Source of the DNA: a virus
Lineage: Duplodnaviria; Heunggongvirae; Uroviricota; Caudoviricetes
Direction: 5' to 3' (one strand)
IMG/VR virus record: IMGVR_UViG_2703718815_000007
Length of the DNA: 4,992 bases
In this document: piece by piece, positions 1 through 4,992 of the stretch
How positions within the stretch are numbered: position 1 is the first letter of the stretch
How the letters are laid out: each line of letters starts with the position of its first letter
Notes under the pieces: generated by a model
The model's input: the letters and a program-made list of their open reading frames with translations, nothing else
Database searches by the model: none
Told to the model about the DNA's origin: nothing
Translations under genes and position numbers: made by a program

Positions 1-94
1 AATAGCGGATTTTTATAAATTAGTGTTTTTTGCTGTTTCATAATGTGCCACGTTGTTCATTATGTTTTTGATTTTTAAGTTCATTGCAATTTTT

Positions 95-114
95 CTTGTT
101 CCAGCTTGTTCCAC
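95..114. repeat. 10-bp tandem direct repeat CTTGTTCCAG / CTTGTTCCAC (9/10 identical)
   Basis: Read directly from sequence; contains TTGTTCCA, the reverse complement of TGGAACAA found twice downstream of int. Confidence 0.7.
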
Positions 115-138
115 GTTGTACCCCCTTGTGCAATGATC

Positions 139-162
139 GGTGTAGTTAATGGTGTAGTTAAT
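139..162. repeat. perfect 12-bp tandem direct repeat GGTGTAGTTAAT x2 abutting the int start codon
   Basis: 139-150 and 151-162 are identical. Position suggests an operator or arm-type site, but function is not shown. Confidence 0.75.
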
Positions 163-163
163 T

Positions 164-1414
164 GTGATGACCGGATTCAAAATTATGAGCAGAGCACTTA
201 ACAAACTGAGCGATACACAGCTAAGAAAAATCAACGGCACACCAGCCCCAAAAACCACATTTCTTAATGACGGTGGAAACCTGAGCGTCAGGCATTCCAC
301 CAGCGGCCTGTTAACCTGGTATTTCACCTACAGGGCAGGAGCTGGACGCCAGGTATCACCGGAACGCCTGAAGCTGGGAAATTATCCTGATCTGAGCCTG
401 AAAGCAGCCAGGGAAAAAGCGGCACAGTGTCGCGCATGGCTGGCAGAAGGAAAAAATCCACGCCATGAGCTTAATTACTCCATACAGGAAGCACTAAAGC
501 CGGTAACGGTGGGCGATGCGATCAGCTACTGGCTGGAAATGCACGTAAAGGAAAACCGTGTCGATTACGTATGCCTGAAAAGCCGCCTTAATAATCACGT
601 CATACAGCATATTGGCAATATGCCACTGGATAAATGCGAGTTACGTCACTGGCTGGCCTGTTTTGACCGGATACGCAAAAAATCCCCCGTAACATCTGGC
701 CACATGATGCAGGCGTGTAAACAGGCGCTTAAGTTCTGCCGTAAACGTCGCTACGCAGTCAGTAACGTTCTGGATGATCTCAACGTGGTGGACGTTGGCA
801 AAAAGCCGGGCATAAGCGAACGCGTGCTAAGTAACAAAGAACTGGGCGAATTATTACAGGCACTGGATAAAAAAATATTCCCGCCCTACTACAGCGCGCT
901 AATCCGCCTCCTGATTGTGTTCGGCTGCCGAACCGGAGAACTGAGATTGTCGGAGATCAGGGAGTGGGATTTTAAGGAAATGCTCTGGACAGTACCGAAG
1001 GAGCACAGCAAAACGAAGGTCGCCATATTCAGGCCAATACCGGAAAGTATTTTACCGTTCGTCACACAGCTGGTGGAGCAGAACCGACACACAGGGCTAT
1101 TACTCGGGGAACTGAAACAGGAAGCCAGCGTGTCGCAATACGGCAGATTCACACACAAAAAATTAAACCATCCTCACTGGTCACTACACGATATACGGCG
1201 CACGTTTACCACGATGCTGAACGATTTAGGCGTGGATCCACATATTGTCGAGCAACTTACCGCCCACCAGATGCCAGGGATGCAGCGAGTCTATAACCAC
1301 TCCCGTTATCTCGATGCGAAACGTAATGCGCTGGACATGTGGACAGAGCGGTTAGAGATACTGGCGGGTACTCACGAAAACGTAACCACACTGCCAATAG
1401 CCAGAGAAATATAA
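164..1414 (+). CDS. int: tyrosine site-specific integrase, P4-type (N-terminal arm-binding domain plus catalytic domain)
   Basis: 416-aa ORF. N-terminus LSDTQLRK...DGGNLSV...GNYPDLSLKAAREKA matches the P4-family arm-binding pattern (LTDxxIRK...DGGGLYL...G.YP.VSLAEAR). Catalytic motifs present: GCRTGELRLSEI (TGxRxxE box), HDIRRT (HxxR), RVYNHSRYLDAKRNALDMW (YN..Y nucleophile region). No strong SD before any start; in-frame ATGs at 164, 167 and 185. ATG 185 (MSRALNKLSDTQ) gives the more typical spacing before the LSD motif, so the true start may be 185. Confidence 0.92.
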   Translation: MMTGFKIMSRALNKLSDTQLRKINGTPAPKTTFLNDGGNLSVRHSTSGLLTWYFTYRAGAGRQVSPERLKLGNYPDLSLKAAREKAAQCRAWLAEGKNPRHELNYSIQEALKPVTVGDAISYWLEMHVKENRVDYVCLKSRLNNHVIQHIGNMPLDKCELRHWLACFDRIRKKSPVTSGHMMQACKQALKFCRKRRYAVSNVLDDLNVVDVGKKPGISERVLSNKELGELLQALDKKIFPPYYSALIRLLIVFGCRTGELRLSEIREWDFKEMLWTVPKEHSKTKVAIFRPIPESILPFVTQLVEQNRHTGLLLGELKQEASVSQYGRFTHKKLNHPHWSLHDIRRTFTTMLNDLGVDPHIVEQLTAHQMPGMQRVYNHSRYLDAKRNALDMWTERLEILAGTHENVTTLPIAREI

Positions 1415-1437
1415 TTTTTTTCGTGATTTTTCAGAAC

Positions 1438-1544
1438 GGACACAACGTGGAACAACGAGACACAACGACGAACAACGGCAAACAATCTGGAACAAATCTG
1501 ATTATCTATGATTATTTCTGATTAACTCCCTATAAGTCTGATTT
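1438..1544. repeat. helically phased short-repeat array (10/20-bp periodicity) just downstream of int
   Basis: Two 20-bp units, 1438-1457 GGACACAACGTGGAACAACG and 1458-1477 AGACACAACGACGAACAACG (17/20). TGGAACAA at 1448-1455 and 1488-1495. TCTGATT at 1497, 1517, 1537 (exact 20-bp spacing) plus TATGATTA at 1507. Candidate protein-binding array; function is inference. Confidence 0.6.
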
Positions 1545-1600
1545 TCTGGTGGTTTACTGTTTTTTTGTACATTGGCGAATCAATCTTAAAAATATGTAAA

Positions 1601-1630
1601 AAAGGCGTAAATGCAGAATTTTACGCCTTT
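1601..1630. terminator. intergenic hairpin, bidirectional terminator-like (better U-tract on the minus strand)
   Basis: 11-bp stem AAAGGCGTAAA (1601-1611) with TTTACGCCTTT (1620-1630), 8-nt loop. Plus strand followed by TTTGTATCC (weak U-tract); minus strand followed by TTTTTTACATATTTTT (strong U-tract). Confidence 0.5.
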
Positions 1631-1699
1631 GTATCCAAATGAATCAAAATAGTTTTTTTCTAATTGCGCCTATTTCAGCGACGAACACCACATCACTGT

Positions 1700-1790
1700 T
1701 TGCCATTCCATAAACACCCTGACACAATCCGACACAACCCAACCCAATAACCCACCCAATGACTCTTTAAGAAACAACAAAGGGGGAATT
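1700..1790 (+). promoter_or_regulatory. alpA upstream region: CA-rich tract with GACACAA direct repeats, possible weak promoter, strong SD
   Basis: GACACAATCC/GACACAACCC at 1721-1740 (10-bp spacing), CCCAAT x2 at 1743-1748 and 1755-1760. Possible TTGCCA (1700-1705)-17-CACAAT (1723-1728), which is weak. SD AAGGGGG at 1780-1786, 4 nt before GTG 1791. Confidence 0.3.
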
Positions 1791-1979
1791 GTGTTAAGCA
1801 CAGATCGCTTTATACGTGAAAAAGAATGTCAGCAACTTACAGGCCTGAGCCGTTCATGTCGGTACCGCCTGGAAAAAACCGGACAATTCCCATCACGGCG
1901 TAAGCTCGGCGGTCGTTCCGTTGGCTGGTCTTTATCCGAAGTTCTGGCATGGAAGGAAAGCTGCGAGGCAGTTCACTAA
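1791..1979 (+). CDS. alpA: AlpA/Vis-family small HTH regulator (prophage transcriptional regulator / excisionase-like)
   Basis: 62-aa ORF with GTG start and strong SD. Sequence ...CQQLTGLSRSCRYRLEKTGQFPSRRKLGGRSVGWSLSEVLAWKES fits the AlpA-family pattern (HTH followed by ...G.RSVGW...EV..W). Placement immediately after a P4-type int is typical. Family call is by recollection, not search. Confidence 0.8.
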   Translation: MLSTDRFIREKECQQLTGLSRSCRYRLEKTGQFPSRRKLGGRSVGWSLSEVLAWKESCEAVH

Positions 1980-1984
1980 TCAGG

Positions 1985-2005
1985 CTGGCGGCACACAGCC
2001 GCCAC
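1985..2005 (+). other. GC-rich stem-loop immediately after the alpA stop, without a U-tract
   Basis: 7-bp stem TGGCGGC (1986-1992) with GCCGCCA (1998-2004), loop ACACA. No T-run on either side, so not a canonical intrinsic terminator. Confidence 0.4.
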
Positions 2006-2031
2006 CCATCCACTAATACAGAGATCTAACC

Positions 2032-3312
2032 ATGAATACTGGATATTCTCCCGAACAAGGGCGGGGCTTCGTTCGTCCTGAAAAACAGAATCTGCAAAAT
2101 TTTGCCGAAATTATTCCGGTTATTTCCGGCCTTACTGGCGGGAGTGAAACCAATATTGTTAACGCCAGAGCGTTGCAGATGTTTGATGATAAAAAGGGAG
2201 TAAATTTAACTTACACCCCTGACGGCAATCAGAATATGAGCATTATCTCTGAGTCAGGTTTCTACAAACTAATAAAAACAAAAAGCGCCCCGTTGCCGGA
2301 GCGCCTTTGTGAACAATTAACCTACTGCGCAAAAAATGAATCTGAGCAGTGGGATTATATCAACCGTGTGGTGAAGCGCCACTATTGCCGGATAACAGGC
2401 AAAACAAAGGCGACCGCAAAAGGGTCGCCAGTGGGAACAAGGGAAAACAAAAGCATCACCAACAATGCCACATTTGCGGCTGGTGGGCAATGTGATCAGT
2501 CAGATTTGGTTCGTTCCAAGGTTTGCAACGAGAGTTTTTTCCTGCGCTCTTTAAGGAATTTCTCAAGAGCAAACGAACAAGGTGCGAATCTTTCTGATTC
2601 ATGCTCTATCTTTCTGCGCCGTCTTTTCCGTGTCGGTGATAATGTTTTGGTCAATTCTTTATCGGTCATTGTGTTGTCCTGCATAGCAATGCGCCGTAAT
2701 ACCTTACACCACGGCGCTGGTGATGGTTATTCCTGCTCTTTGGCCTTGCGACGCTGGCGGTATTCAACTTCTCGCTTTAATGCTGCTGTTACAAACTGCC
2801 CTGTACTTTCACCAGGCATTTTTACCGCCTCAACATTGTTCATAACTTCATGCGGAACCCTTGCCGCAACTGTTTGTGATTTTGCGTTTACTGCTTTTGT
2901 TGCCATGTTGTGTACCCCTTACAAAAAACAAATGCAGTATGCAGGAAAAAAAATAAGTGTTCAACACTTGACGTGTTTAACACCAGGGCTTAAATTGGTG
3001 TTCAACACCTTACTGATGCAAGGTGCAGAAACGACGAAACCCGGCAGTGCGCTAACACTAACCGGGCTTCTAACCACCAACGATAGAAAGCGTATCGAGG
3101 TAGCTATGAGAAATTATACCAGACACCCGCAAGGGCGGGACTCGTACAACCTGAATAAATACATCTGGCGTTTTATCGCCCTGAGCACGGCACAACCGCG
3201 CGTGATTACCATTGAGGCCACCAGCGAACAGGAAGCGCGTCAGCAATCTCCTGATGGCTGCGTGATGGTATTCGCTGCCCGTATTCGTCAGGGGGTACGC
3301 CATGTGCAATAA
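2032..3312 (+). CDS. uncertain 426-codon open frame, probably not a single gene; the first ~130 codons look protein-like, the middle looks like antisense read-through, the last 68 codons are the separate Icd/Kil-like ORF
   Basis: Seen: no stop in this frame from 2032 to 3312. Codons ~135-290 are Cys/Ser/Leu/Arg/Phe-rich, and this frame is wobble-aligned antisense to two minus-strand ORFs with their own RBS, promoter and terminators. The segment MSIISESGFYKLIKTKSAP resembles the Bro-N/antirepressor ISE.GLY.LI..S motif, but that is a weak by-eye resemblance. Two minus-oriented terminator hairpins lie inside it. Confidence 0.25.
   Translation: MNTGYSPEQGRGFVRPEKQNLQNFAEIIPVISGLTGGSETNIVNARALQMFDDKKGVNLTYTPDGNQNMSIISESGFYKLIKTKSAPLPERLCEQLTYCAKNESEQWDYINRVVKRHYCRITGKTKATAKGSPVGTRENKSITNNATFAAGGQCDQSDLVRSKVCNESFFLRSLRNFSRANEQGANLSDSCSIFLRRLFRVGDNVLVNSLSVIVLSCIAMRRNTLHHGAGDGYSCSLALRRWRYSTSRFNAAVTNCPVLSPGIFTASTLFITSCGTLAATVCDFAFTAFVAMLCTPYKKQMQYAGKKISVQHLTCLTPGLKLVFNTLLMQGAETTKPGSALTLTGLLTTNDRKRIEVAMRNYTRHPQGRDSYNLNKYIWRFIALSTAQPRVITIEATSEQEARQQSPDGCVMVFAARIRQGVRHVQ
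2271..2304 (-). terminator. candidate intrinsic terminator for leftward transcription (distal of two)
   Basis: GC-rich imperfect stem 2285-2292 with 2297-2304 (7 of 8 pairs), loop TTGC. On the minus strand it is followed by TTTTTGTTTTTATT (complement of 2271-2284). On the plus strand it is followed only by CTTTGTG. Confidence 0.4.
2401..2429 (-). terminator. candidate intrinsic terminator for the leftward RHH cassette (proximal)
   Basis: Perfect 7-bp stem GGCGACC (2409-2415) with GGTCGCC (2423-2429), 7-nt loop. On the minus strand it is followed by TTTGTTTT (complement of 2401-2408). It lies 66 nt beyond the stop of the 62-aa minus ORF. Confidence 0.55.
2496..2684 (-). CDS. small highly basic protein of unknown function, second gene of the leftward cassette
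   Basis: 62-aa ORF MQDNTMTDKELTKTLSPTRKRRRRKIEHESERFAPCSFALEKFLKERRKKLSLQTLERTKSD. The internal ATG at 2669 has AGGA 7 nt upstream, so the product is probably 57 aa. Protein-like K/E/R-rich composition, same strand as and just downstream of the RHH gene, followed by a terminator. No family recognised. Confidence 0.4.
   Translation of the reverse strand: MQDNTMTDKELTKTLSPTRKRRRRKIEHESERFAPCSFALEKFLKERRKKLSLQTLERTKSD
2727..2906 (-). CDS. Arc/MetJ-like ribbon-helix-helix DNA-binding protein, candidate repressor of the switch region
   Basis: 59-aa ORF, hand-translated (below the track's length cutoff): MATKAVNAKSQTVAARVPHEVMNNVEAVKMPGESTGQFVTAALKREVEYRQRRKAKEQE. Fits RHH layout: beta-strand (VAARVPHEV), helix A, G-x-S/T turn (PGESTG), helix B (QFVTAALKREVE), basic tail. 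SD AAGGGG 8 nt upstream of the ATG. Fold assignment is by eye. Confidence 0.6.
   Translation of the reverse strand: MATKAVNAKSQTVAARVPHEVMNNVEAVKMPGESTGQFVTAALKREVEYRQRRKAKEQE
2936..2964 (-). promoter_or_regulatory. candidate sigma70 promoter for the leftward RHH cassette
   Basis: On the minus strand: TTGAAC (complement of 2959-2964, inside operator site 1), 17-bp spacer, CATACT (complement of 2936-2941). This gives a leader of about 23 nt carrying the AAGGGG SD. Confidence 0.35.
2955..3009. promoter_or_regulatory. operator array: three palindromes sharing the core GTGTT-N-AACAC
   Basis: Site 1 at 2955-2969 AAGTGTT-C-AACACTT (7-bp arms); site 2 at 2973-2983 GTGTT-T-AACAC; site 3 at 2997-3009 GGTGTT-C-AACACC (6-bp arms). 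The sites overlap both candidate promoters. Confidence 0.65.
2968..2996 (+). promoter_or_regulatory. candidate sigma70 promoter for the rightward icd-like/replication operon
   Basis: TTGACG (2968-2973), 17-bp spacer, TAAATT (2991-2996). Operator site 2 sits in the spacer and site 3 at the predicted start. The 5' UTR would be about 100 nt to ATG 3106. Confidence 0.4.
3106..3312 (+). CDS. small protein, first gene of the rightward operon; possibly Icd/Kil-like (positional analogue of P4 kil)
   Basis: 68 aa: MRNYTRHPQGRDSYNLNKYIWRFIALSTAQPRVITIEATSEQEARQQSPDGCVMVFAARIRQGVRHVQ. SD GAGG 5 nt upstream. The in-frame ATG at 3016 has no SD and lies about 13 nt from the predicted start, so it is disfavoured. 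The Icd-like label is from memory of annotations in P4-like prophages and is low-certainty. Confidence 0.5.
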   Translation: MRNYTRHPQGRDSYNLNKYIWRFIALSTAQPRVITIEATSEQEARQQSPDGCVMVFAARIRQGVRHVQ

Positions 3313-3769
3313 CACCCGTCCGGACGCAGCCGCCGAAGCCATCAAAACGCTGATGCACGCGCTGATTGATATTTCTGTTATCGCAGACAAGGCGCATAAG
3401 CACGCCACCAGCGAAACAGAATATGCCGGGGCTTTCGTTCCTCACTCACTGGCTGTTATGCAATTTAGTGCTGATATGGCACTGAATGAGGCCAGGGCTA
3501 TCCTGATTGCTGATTGTGAAAATGGGGGGGGGGTTATGCGTGATGATCGTTTTAATGCCCTGAAACAGGAATTTTATGGCGCACCGGATGATACAGGCGA
3601 TGCGTTGCTGGTTGTTAATGACCTGATAAAGGCCGCATGTTTTTTAATTGGAACCGCTGAACATTCAGGAACCGGCAACGATATTCTTATTATTGCGTCG
3701 GATTATGCTGAATATGTGGCAGAGGCGCGTTACAGAAGAAAATTCCCGGAGAATGTAAGCCATGTGTGA
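3302..3769 (+). CDS. hypothetical protein (155 aa), translationally coupled to the upstream ORF; contains an in-frame G10 tract
   Basis: ATG 3302 overlaps the upstream stop (3310-3312). Strong SD AGGGGG at 3290-3295, 6 nt upstream. Protein-like composition. No family recognised. Confidence 0.65.
   Translation: MCNNTRPDAAAEAIKTLMHALIDISVIADKAHKHATSETEYAGAFVPHSLAVMQFSADMALNEARAILIADCENGGGVMRDDRFNALKQEFYGAPDDTGDALLVVNDLIKAACFLIGTAEHSGTGNDILIIASDYAEYVAEARYRRKFPENVSHV
3524..3533 (+). repeat. homopolymeric G10 tract inside the 155-aa ORF (encodes GGG)
   Basis: Ten consecutive G read directly. G9 or G11 would give a stop within about 10 codons. Confidence 0.9.
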
Positions 3770-3995
3770 TATTTACAATGACACAGTAGACCGTGCATAC
3801 CGTGCTCTTGCTTACAGTGAAAACATGCTTGAAATATTGTGCTTATGGCTTGAAACGCTTGGCGATAATGAAAGAGATAAACGCAACAGCAATATTGCGA
3901 CGGCGTTAATAACGCTTCTTGAGCCGGTAATAATGGAACTACAAGAAATAGACCTTTTGCACGACAGATATAAAGAACAACACACCGGGAAATAA
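3762..3995 (+). CDS. hypothetical protein (77 aa)
   Basis: ATG 3762 overlaps the upstream stop (3767-3769). GGAGA is 9 nt upstream. Acidic, helix-prone sequence. No family recognised. Confidence 0.55.
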   Translation: MCDIYNDTVDRAYRALAYSENMLEILCLWLETLGDNERDKRNSNIATALITLLEPVIMELQEIDLLHDRYKEQHTGK

Positions 3996-4000
3996 AAACC

Positions 4001-4300
4001 ATGAAACAGAAAATTTCTGGCTTTACTGCCAGCGGCCCCGCTCGGCCTGAAATCCGCCCCGGCGATATTTTCCGGGATAACTACGGCGGCACGGTAACGA
4101 TTAAAAGCGTGGCGGGACGGTGCGTTACTTACCGCCGTGATGGGTACGGCTATGACTGTGTGATGCCTGTTTATCAGTTCCGGCGTGATTTTTCACTGAT
4201 ACAGGCCACACCACGCAAACAGCCCACCAGCAACGCAAAGGCACGGGCAAATATTCAGAAAATGAAAAGCATGATTAACGCATTCAGGGGCAAAAAATGA
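4001..4300 (+). CDS. hypothetical protein (99 aa) with a basic C-terminal tail
   Basis: Starts 5 nt after the upstream stop; its stop overlaps the next start (ATGA at 4297-4300). Core GDIFRDNYGGTVTIKSVAGRCVTYRRDGYGYDCVMPVYQF looks like a small beta-rich domain, followed by a K/R-rich tail. No family recognised. Confidence 0.6.
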   Translation: MKQKISGFTASGPARPEIRPGDIFRDNYGGTVTIKSVAGRCVTYRRDGYGYDCVMPVYQFRRDFSLIQATPRKQPTSNAKARANIQKMKSMINAFRGKK

Positions 4301-4992
4301 AACTGGCACCGAACTTAAAAAAACAGCCACACGACAAAATGACCGAAGTCATTATTTTTGCGGGTAGTGATGCCTGGGCGCACGCGAAACAGTGGCAGGA
4401 ACAGGACGGGCGACTTGCTGGCGACAACGTGCCACCTGTATGGCTTGGAGACAGCCAGCTTGACGAACTGGCAGACCTGAAAATTATCGACGATGGTCGC
4501 TATTGTGTCCGGCTATACAAGGCAGGCCACATCAAGCCGTCAAATATTAATGCCATCGGGCAAAAACTGGCGGCGGCAGGTGTACGGGATGCGAATTATT
4601 ACCCTGAGGGAATGCACAGCCAGAAGCTGGAGAACTGGCACGACTACCTGCAACGGATCCGCGAACAGGCAGAGCGCGGGGAAATACTTACTGACGAGCA
4701 ATACAGCCAGCGAAAAACCACGCTACCAATGAGTATTGGATCTACAGGGTACGACACACAGCTTGATTATGTCGTTAAGGGCGTTATTCCGGCTAATTCA
4801 TTGTGCAGCACATACGGCGCGAGCGGTTCTTATAAATCGTTCCTCGCGTGTTCCTGGGCGTGTCATGTTGCCACGGGGCGCCACTGGGGAGGCCGCAGGG
4901 TTGCGCATGGTTCGGTGATGTATGTTGTCGGTGAAGGTGGCATTGGTGTCCCCCGCCGTATCAGGGCATGGGAAATCGTTAATGATGAACGG
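4297..4992 (+). CDS. replication protein, 5' partial (runs off window): possible Toprim-like N-terminal region fused to a RepA/AAA_25-like P-loop NTPase
   Basis: Hand-translated 232 codons with no stop to the window end. SD AGGGG 6 nt upstream. C-terminal part YVVKGVIPANSLCSTYGASGSYKSFLACSWACHVATGRHWGGRRVAHGSVMYVVGEGG matches the RepA/AAA_25 pattern (...G..GSGKSFLAL..A.AVATGR.W.GR.V..G.VLY...E). The N-terminal region has E...DDG spacing that may be Toprim-like; that part is tentative. Confidence 0.8.
   Translation, partial: MKLAPNLKKQPHDKMTEVIIFAGSDAWAHAKQWQEQDGRLAGDNVPPVWLGDSQLDELADLKIIDDGRYCVRLYKAGHIKPSNINAIGQKLAAAGVRDANYYPEGMHSQKLENWHDYLQRIREQAERGEILTDEQYSQRKTTLPMSIGSTGYDTQLDYVVKGVIPANSLCSTYGASGSYKSFLACSWACHVATGRHWGGRRVAHGSVMYVVGEGGIGVPRRIRAWEIVNDER

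Follow-up and report, generated by a model that had tools for sequence, protein, structure and literature searches.

The reading frame that runs off the 3′ end of the analyzed DNA (hereafter the window, 4,992 nt in length) encodes Rep, the replication initiator-helicase of an EcCICFT073-type phage-inducible chromosomal island (PICI). Its Walker A motif has a tyrosine where the canonical motif has a glycine, and we consider it likely that this motif works, the tyrosine being an ordinary variant of the subfamily in a protein that is presumably active. Across a large branch of the phage and satellite helicases, in which every catalytic residue is kept, tyrosine is usual at this position, which is why we read it as a family variant. 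The features of rep and of its upstream neighbor that the argument requires are the following.

4001..4300, + strand: DUF4222 gene, directly 5′ of rep
4297..4992, + strand: rep, 5′ part, 232 codons, open to the window end; full-length homologues have 465-471 aa
4297..4689, + strand: N-terminal module of about 131 aa, common to the EcCICFT073 (D5-type) and EcCIEDL933 (DUF927-type) Reps
4753..4974, + strand: in-window part of the RecA-fold AAA_25 ATPase domain, residues 153-226 (PF13481; Foldseek match to RepA)
4816..4839, + strand: Walker A/P-loop, G174-A-S-G-S-Y179-K180-S181, with Tyr at the canonical Gly site
4831-4833 and 4834-4836, + strand: codons of Tyr179 and Lys180, respectively
4933..4935, + strand: Glu213 (GAA), candidate catalytic glutamate, opposite the RepA 'AED' Glu in the alignment and invariant in either P-loop class

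The ATG of rep at 4297 overlaps the stop codon (TGA) of the DUF4222 gene in the sequence ATGA (4297-4300). Translation of the window places GASGSYKS in frame at nt 4816-4839 (ggc gcg agc ggt tct tat aaa tcg), and in a phmmer alignment with RSF1010 RepA (PDB 1g8y) these eight residues pair with SPGGAGKS of that protein, so that Tyr179 occupies the site of the canonical Gly before the Lys. The first-pass annotation had described the motif in this way, and both the translation and the RepA alignment agree with it. Compared with the canonical GxxxxGK[ST], Gly1, Lys7 and Ser8 are present and Tyr179 stands at position 6. Each of the 120 listed homologues (60-95% identity) has G[AP]SGSYKS (GASGSYKS in 112 and GPSGSYKS in 8), and the tyrosine is thus neither a chance occurrence nor a sequencing error.

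Membership of Rep in the AAA_25 family is well marked. The fragment within the window matches Pfam AAA_25 (PF13481) with 75.6 bits against a cut-off of 27 (E 5e-21), over a span of residues 153-226 that therefore includes the Walker A motif, and the full-length homologue in E. coli TW10590, whose island locus (L001) is 92% identical to the window at the nucleotide level, scores 151.3 bits. The annotation given to rep is 'helicase RepA family protein'; some sources name the protein 'DNA primase', and PHROG 2850, which matches it end to end, is labeled 'unknown function'. Among NCBIfam models we found none specific for the protein, and the RadA models stayed below threshold (25 and 23 bits versus 259 and 361). 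Nor does Rep belong to the RecA/UvsX/RadA recombinases, as it has only the P-loop pattern in common with UvsX. An AF2 model of the full-length homologue P0001 (pLDDT 93.6) comprises an N-terminal alpha/beta module (1-126), a RecA-type core, in which a strand (169-174) leads through the P-loop into a helix (180-193), and a C-terminal unit of three helices and a beta-hairpin (410-470). When Foldseek matches were ranked by target coverage, RSF1010 RepA structures (PDB 1g8y, 1nlf, 1olo) came first, with a TM of 0.71-0.74 on the target, followed by Twinkle, T7 gp4, RAD51 and KaiC; the core as modeled is therefore close in predicted fold to a solved member of its own family. A Toprim-like fold is predicted for the N-terminal module, in which the canonical acidic residues of Toprim (catalytic Glu, DxD) are not evident. 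The C-terminal domain may be read as a winged helix that presumably reads iterons. Taken together, Rep would be a three-part protein, in which a Toprim-like N-terminal module precedes a RecA-fold helicase akin to RSF1010 RepA and to the T7 gp4/Twinkle class, and the C-terminal domain would recognize the origin iterons just downstream.

To describe the residue at Walker A position 6 across the wider family, we ran an exhaustive phmmer search of representatives, one per 50%-identity cluster (32,024 hits), and built an alignment from the ATPase domains of the top 150 hits, all with E <= 1e-43, of which 142 cover the motif. Position 6 in these 142 representatives is Y in 50, F in 38, G in 41, L in 6, C in 3, A in 2 and R in 1, one further row being a misaligned fragment, while the following Lys and Ser/Thr are each present in 100% of them. 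Tyr or Phe is thus the commonest state, in 88 of 142 representatives drawn from the best 150 of 32,024 hits. That the tyrosine might be an accepted family variant had been one of several suggestions made initially, and together with the tyrosine of all 120 close homologues these counts bear it out. Bulky residues common at this position in active homologues had been named in advance as the finding that would remove the anomaly; the sequence part of this is what the family alignment shows. The tyrosine motif is unusual among P-loop NTPases in general and ordinary in its own subfamily. Position 6 is moreover labile and does not define one degenerate lineage, as on a rough neighbor-joining tree Fitch parsimony counts no fewer than 20 switches between Gly, aromatic and other states. 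Along the order of its tips, Y freely alternates with F, and Gly turns up inside the aromatic clade as aromatics do inside the Gly clade. The position with the highest mutual information with the P-loop aromatic (0.55) is residue 152, in an S-x-G-[YFW]-D motif 27 residues upstream of Tyr179. We considered it as a packing partner of the tyrosine and set it aside, since the covariation falls mostly within one clade and has exceptions both ways (13 aromatic P-loops lack S-x-G-[YFW]-D and 3 Gly P-loops have it), and is therefore judged largely phylogenetic.

The interchange of Y, F and L at position 6 suggests that the side chain serves in hydrophobic packing and that the tyrosine hydroxyl is dispensable. 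This bears on the idea that the P-loop tyrosine is a site of regulatory phosphorylation or another modification that switches the helicase on or off. If modified, a hydroxyl beside the phosphate-binding Lys would be in a good position to keep nucleotide from binding; however, Phe is nearly as common as Tyr (38 versus 50), Leu is also found, and Y and F alternate between neighboring tips of the tree. We consider a modification switch extremely unlikely, and a phospho-tyrosine switch in particular was rejected because Phe and Leu substitute freely for a residue whose hydroxyl can be dispensed with.

In an ATPase that has degenerated, it is usually the Lys, the catalytic Glu, the Walker B acid or the Arg finger that has gone. 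We compared conservation at these and related positions between the 88 aromatic-class and the 41 Gly-class representatives (129 in all), with the following results.

K180: 88/88 in the aromatic class, 41/41 in the Gly class
E213: 87/88 in the aromatic class, 41/41 in the Gly class
D275: 87/88 in the aromatic class, 41/41 in the Gly class
H314: 85/88 in the aromatic class (the rest gaps), 41/41 in the Gly class
H315: 85/88 in the aromatic class (the rest gaps), 41/41 in the Gly class
R325: 85/88 in the aromatic class (the rest gaps), 41/41 in the Gly class

S/T181, T276, E286, N287 and G317 are likewise invariant or nearly so in both classes. K180, S181 and E213 lie within the window and align with RepA, which places both the Walker A Lys-Ser/Thr pair and a candidate catalytic Glu in the sequence at hand. 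D275 (Walker B), H314/H315 (gamma-phosphate sensor) and R325, a putative Arg finger, fall beyond the window end and are present in the full-length homologues from TW10590 and P0001.

These data weigh on a reading in which Rep binds ATP in a degenerate or regulatory module and acts as a nucleotide-gated switch or as a scaffold, with no hydrolysis to drive unwinding and with host DnaB as the unwinding enzyme. The motif does depart from GxxxxGK[ST] at a position reported to be exclusively Gly (PMC11959459), and a regulatory rather than catalytic role had been put forward in the first-pass annotation on the basis of the tyrosine. However, the catalytic Glu, the Walker B Asp, the sensor His residues and the candidate Arg finger are equally invariant, or nearly so, in both P-loop classes, the iterons that adjoin rep fit an initiator-helicase, and primase-helicase fusions and phage replisome genes have the tyrosine variant too, among them the helicase-primase of phages that have their own DNA polymerase. 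We therefore consider a purely regulatory module very unlikely.

The nearest non-island relatives of the helicase module, P0121 (68% identity) and P0123 (49%), both have Y at position 6 and the architecture Zn_Ribbon_Prim + Toprim_3 + AAA_25. A tblastn search of the helicase module against phage genomes matched 1106 records, in six of which we read the Walker A motif.

Jerseyvirus vB_SenS-Ent1, helicase-primase: GESGTYKS
Kagunavirus (one), helicase-primase: GESGTYKS
Vibrio phage 1244: GATGTFKT
Mycobacteriophage Minerva, gp147: GRWGTSKS
Mycobacteriophage Veritas: GPPGIGKS
Corynephage phi673: GPSGVGKS

Phage vB_SenS-Ent1 has its own DNA polymerase, and the Y-type protein, encoded by SEP1_gp43, is its sole annotated primase-helicase. 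Minerva gp147, with Ser at position 6 and Trp at position 3, is another deviation from the canonical motif. Searches of the literature turned up no paper with the motif strings and no assay of an aromatic-class AAA_25 protein, and the only solved structures found with the family profile were of the Gly-type RepA (E 4e-11).

How a bulky residue may be accommodated at position 6 can be considered in the light of a survey of P-loop NTPase structures, in which Walker A residues 4-7 alternate between alpha-R and alpha-L conformations and together make up a backbone-amide nest, with position 6 alpha-L and 'exclusively' Gly in the surveyed set (PMC11959459). The statement in the first-pass annotation that this glycine is required for backbone-phosphate contacts holds only in part, since Gly is indeed favored at an alpha-L position (PMC11959459) but the contact itself is made by a backbone NH, which any residue supplies. 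A side chain at position 6 thus does not remove the phosphate contacts, although the alpha-L conformation and the prevalence of Gly imply that a bulky residue carries some conformational cost and needs room. In Rep, Lys180 and Ser181 would bind the phosphates and Mg2+, the backbone amides of the loop would provide the phosphate nest, and the side chain of Tyr179 would point away from the phosphate and pack as a hydrophobic group. We likewise infer that Rep is an ATPase and helicase, presumably hexameric.

An aromatic residue at position 6 has a precedent outside the family. To our knowledge, T4 UvsX is the only characterized RecA-fold enzyme with such a residue. Its Walker A motif is GPSKSFKS (sequence of PDB 3io5), and it is an active ssDNA-dependent ATPase (PMC3016280). 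UvsX and Rep are both RecA-fold ATPases with the pattern G-x-S-x-S-[FY]-K-S; however, UvsX forms recombinase filaments and is no ring helicase, and a specific sequence relationship to Rep was not detectable. The aromatic common to the two is best read as convergent.

A further suggestion of the first-pass annotation was altered nucleotide handling. The aromatic, in an active helicase, would then change the preference for NTP or dNTP, product release, or the extent of hydrolysis, with ATP taken to AMP as in T4 UvsX. Such an effect would make the Y/F class a mechanistic subclass, and would be compatible with an ordinary, active family variant while adding to it. In its favor, position 6 is otherwise almost always Gly (PMC11959459), UvsX yields both ADP and AMP (PMC3016280), and the aromatic has been kept across a large clade that also carries S-x-G-[YFW]-D. 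Against this, the frequent flips among G, Y, F, L, C, A and R with the rest of the active site unchanged look like near-neutral tolerance. A link between the UvsX Phe and AMP formation would also be speculative by analogy; the stacking of adenine in UvsX is attributed to Tyr99 and not to the P-loop Phe (PMC3016280), and other UvsX proteins have a canonical motif (PMC12890299). On balance, altered handling seems unlikely to us. A broader proposal treats aromatic position 6 as the mark of a class of RecA-fold motors with a mechanism of its own and altered nucleotide chemistry, with separate origins in T4 UvsX and in a large clade of phage and satellite helicases. The side chain would then reshape the phosphate nest and thereby affect substrate preference, product release or hydrolysis beyond ADP, and the switches from G to Y or F would represent functional tuning and not neutral drift. 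We regard this proposal as quite unlikely.

The ordinary, presumably active variant that we favor is found in a mobile element whose nature is clear from its gene order. Matches to part of the window are present in 1850 of 5426 complete E. coli genomes, with at least 80% of it covered in 312, and the best of these matches are ~92-95% identical. The annotations of these best matches are integrase, HTH regulator, YlcI/YnfO, Icd-like, DUF4222 and 'helicase RepA family protein'. In E. coli TW10590, the island lies between abgR and smrA, and its helicase, of 471 aa, is followed by ssb and by genes for a major capsid protein, a head decoration protein and a small terminase. Colinearity with the prototype island EcCICFT073, at 37930-48654 of its locus (L004), extends over window 11-3300 at 85% and 3482-4650 at 75% nucleotide identity (blastn), and the order int - alpA - small ORFs - DUF4222 - rep is that of EcCICFT073-type islands. 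Three further features of the window bear on this assignment.

164..1414, + strand: tyrosine integrase (Pfam Arm-DNA-bind_3 and Phage_integrase; synteny with EcCICFT073)
1791..1979, + strand: AlpA-family regulator (Pfam Phage_AlpA, E 2.7e-18)
4640..4660, + strand: approximate mosaic breakpoint inside rep, where nucleotide similarity to EcCICFT073 stops (~4650) and the AAA_25 module follows

We also considered a capsid-forming PICI (cf-PICI) and dropped this identity because of the colinearity with EcCICFT073 and the small size of the morphogenetic module in TW10590.

Several observations were made in the remainder of the window. An unusually long open frame of 426 codons follows alpA (2032-3312, + strand), with a 396-codon frame at the same place in TW10590 (8023-9213). 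In the 426-codon frame, a match to a known family (PHROG 6196, 'transcriptional repressor', E 1e-50) is confined to the last ~90 residues, at about the place where RefSeq annotates an Icd-like gene in TW10590; residues 44-91 have faint anti-repressor (Ant) matches, and the middle of the frame is antisense to a YlcI/YnfO-like gene (2727-2906, minus strand). This frame is probably a chance fusion of frames and not a single gene. Within the same region, the TW10590 island, elsewhere 88-94% identical, lacks a counterpart of window 2766-3039, which seems to be a local replacement among the regulatory genes. Upstream of int, the 75 nt at 89-163 have an 80% match at the far right end of EcCICFT073 (L004 ~49053-49127), adjoining phoQ, which is consistent with an att-site repeat common to the islands.

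The mosaic breakpoint, a site of recombination inside rep, precedes the P-loop by ~165 nt and marks where the exchange of the helicase module begins. The first ~131 residues of Rep are 62% identical to the EcCICFT073 Pri-Rep; past the breakpoint, EcCICFT073 continues with D5_N/DUF5906/Pox_D5, EcCIEDL933 (L011 14038-16170) with DUF927, and the island in the window with AAA_25. This swap fits the report of four Pri-Rep alleles among E. coli PICIs (PMC6092414). Directly 3′ of rep in TW10590 (11838-12030), a locus outside the window, at least 6 copies of a AAAAGTGAGG iteron occur in direct and inverted orientation, in two sets that flank a central stretch. Two iteron sets after rep are the layout described for origins of Gram-negative PICIs (PMC6092414), and this segment is probably the replication origin of the island.

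The AAA_25 Rep can be compared with several known replication systems. It has in common with RSF1010 RepA, a hexameric replicative helicase, the Pfam family and fold described above, and the Lys-Ser pair, the Glu after strand 2, the Walker B Asp and the His-His sensor align between the two proteins. RepA differs in its canonical SPGGAGKS and in being a bare 279-aa ATPase that lacks the N- and C-terminal modules, at an identity of ~18%. RSF1010 RepA works with a separate primase and initiator. The closest relatives of the island helicase module are the primase-helicases with Zn-ribbon, Toprim and AAA_25 domains, in a T7 gp4-like layout, including the 'replicative helicase-primase' of Jerseyvirus and Kagunavirus, which have the same aromatic P-loop and catalytic residues as Rep. 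These fusions include a recognizable Zn-ribbon and Toprim_3 primase, whereas the island Rep has only the short Toprim-like module and, in addition, the C-terminal domain read as a winged helix. The Pri-Reps of EcCICFT073 and EcCIEDL933 share with it the island type, the gene position after DUF4222, the homologous N-terminal module of ~130 aa and iterons at the downstream origin region, but their helicase modules (D5_N/DUF5906/Pox_D5 and DUF927) are unrelated to AAA_25. Functional work on E. coli PICI replication concerns these other alleles. A rep-ori plasmid test was performed with EcCICFT073, whose Rep is D5-type (PMC6092414), and the published replication experiments, including those in a cf-PICI preprint, used the EcCICFT073 and EcCIEDL933 alleles; as the EcCIEDL933 Rep is DUF927-type, the AAA_25 allele is not covered by them.

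The Walker A tyrosine is no sign of a new system or function; the gene is a PICI rep allele that is widespread and has been annotated before. Its N-terminal module, common to three unrelated types of Rep helicase, is arguably the more interesting feature of rep. For the annotation of such genes, our results indicate that a strict GxxxxGK[ST] pattern misses or mislabels the ATP site of many phage and satellite replication helicases, including the helicase-primases of Jersey- and Kagunavirus and one Rep allele of E. coli PICIs. They also indicate that at least one RecA-fold lineage, that of Rep, can do without the 'obligatory' second P-loop glycine; the position toggles repeatedly there between Gly and Tyr, Phe or Leu, and this toggling provides a natural series for probing what the glycine contributes.
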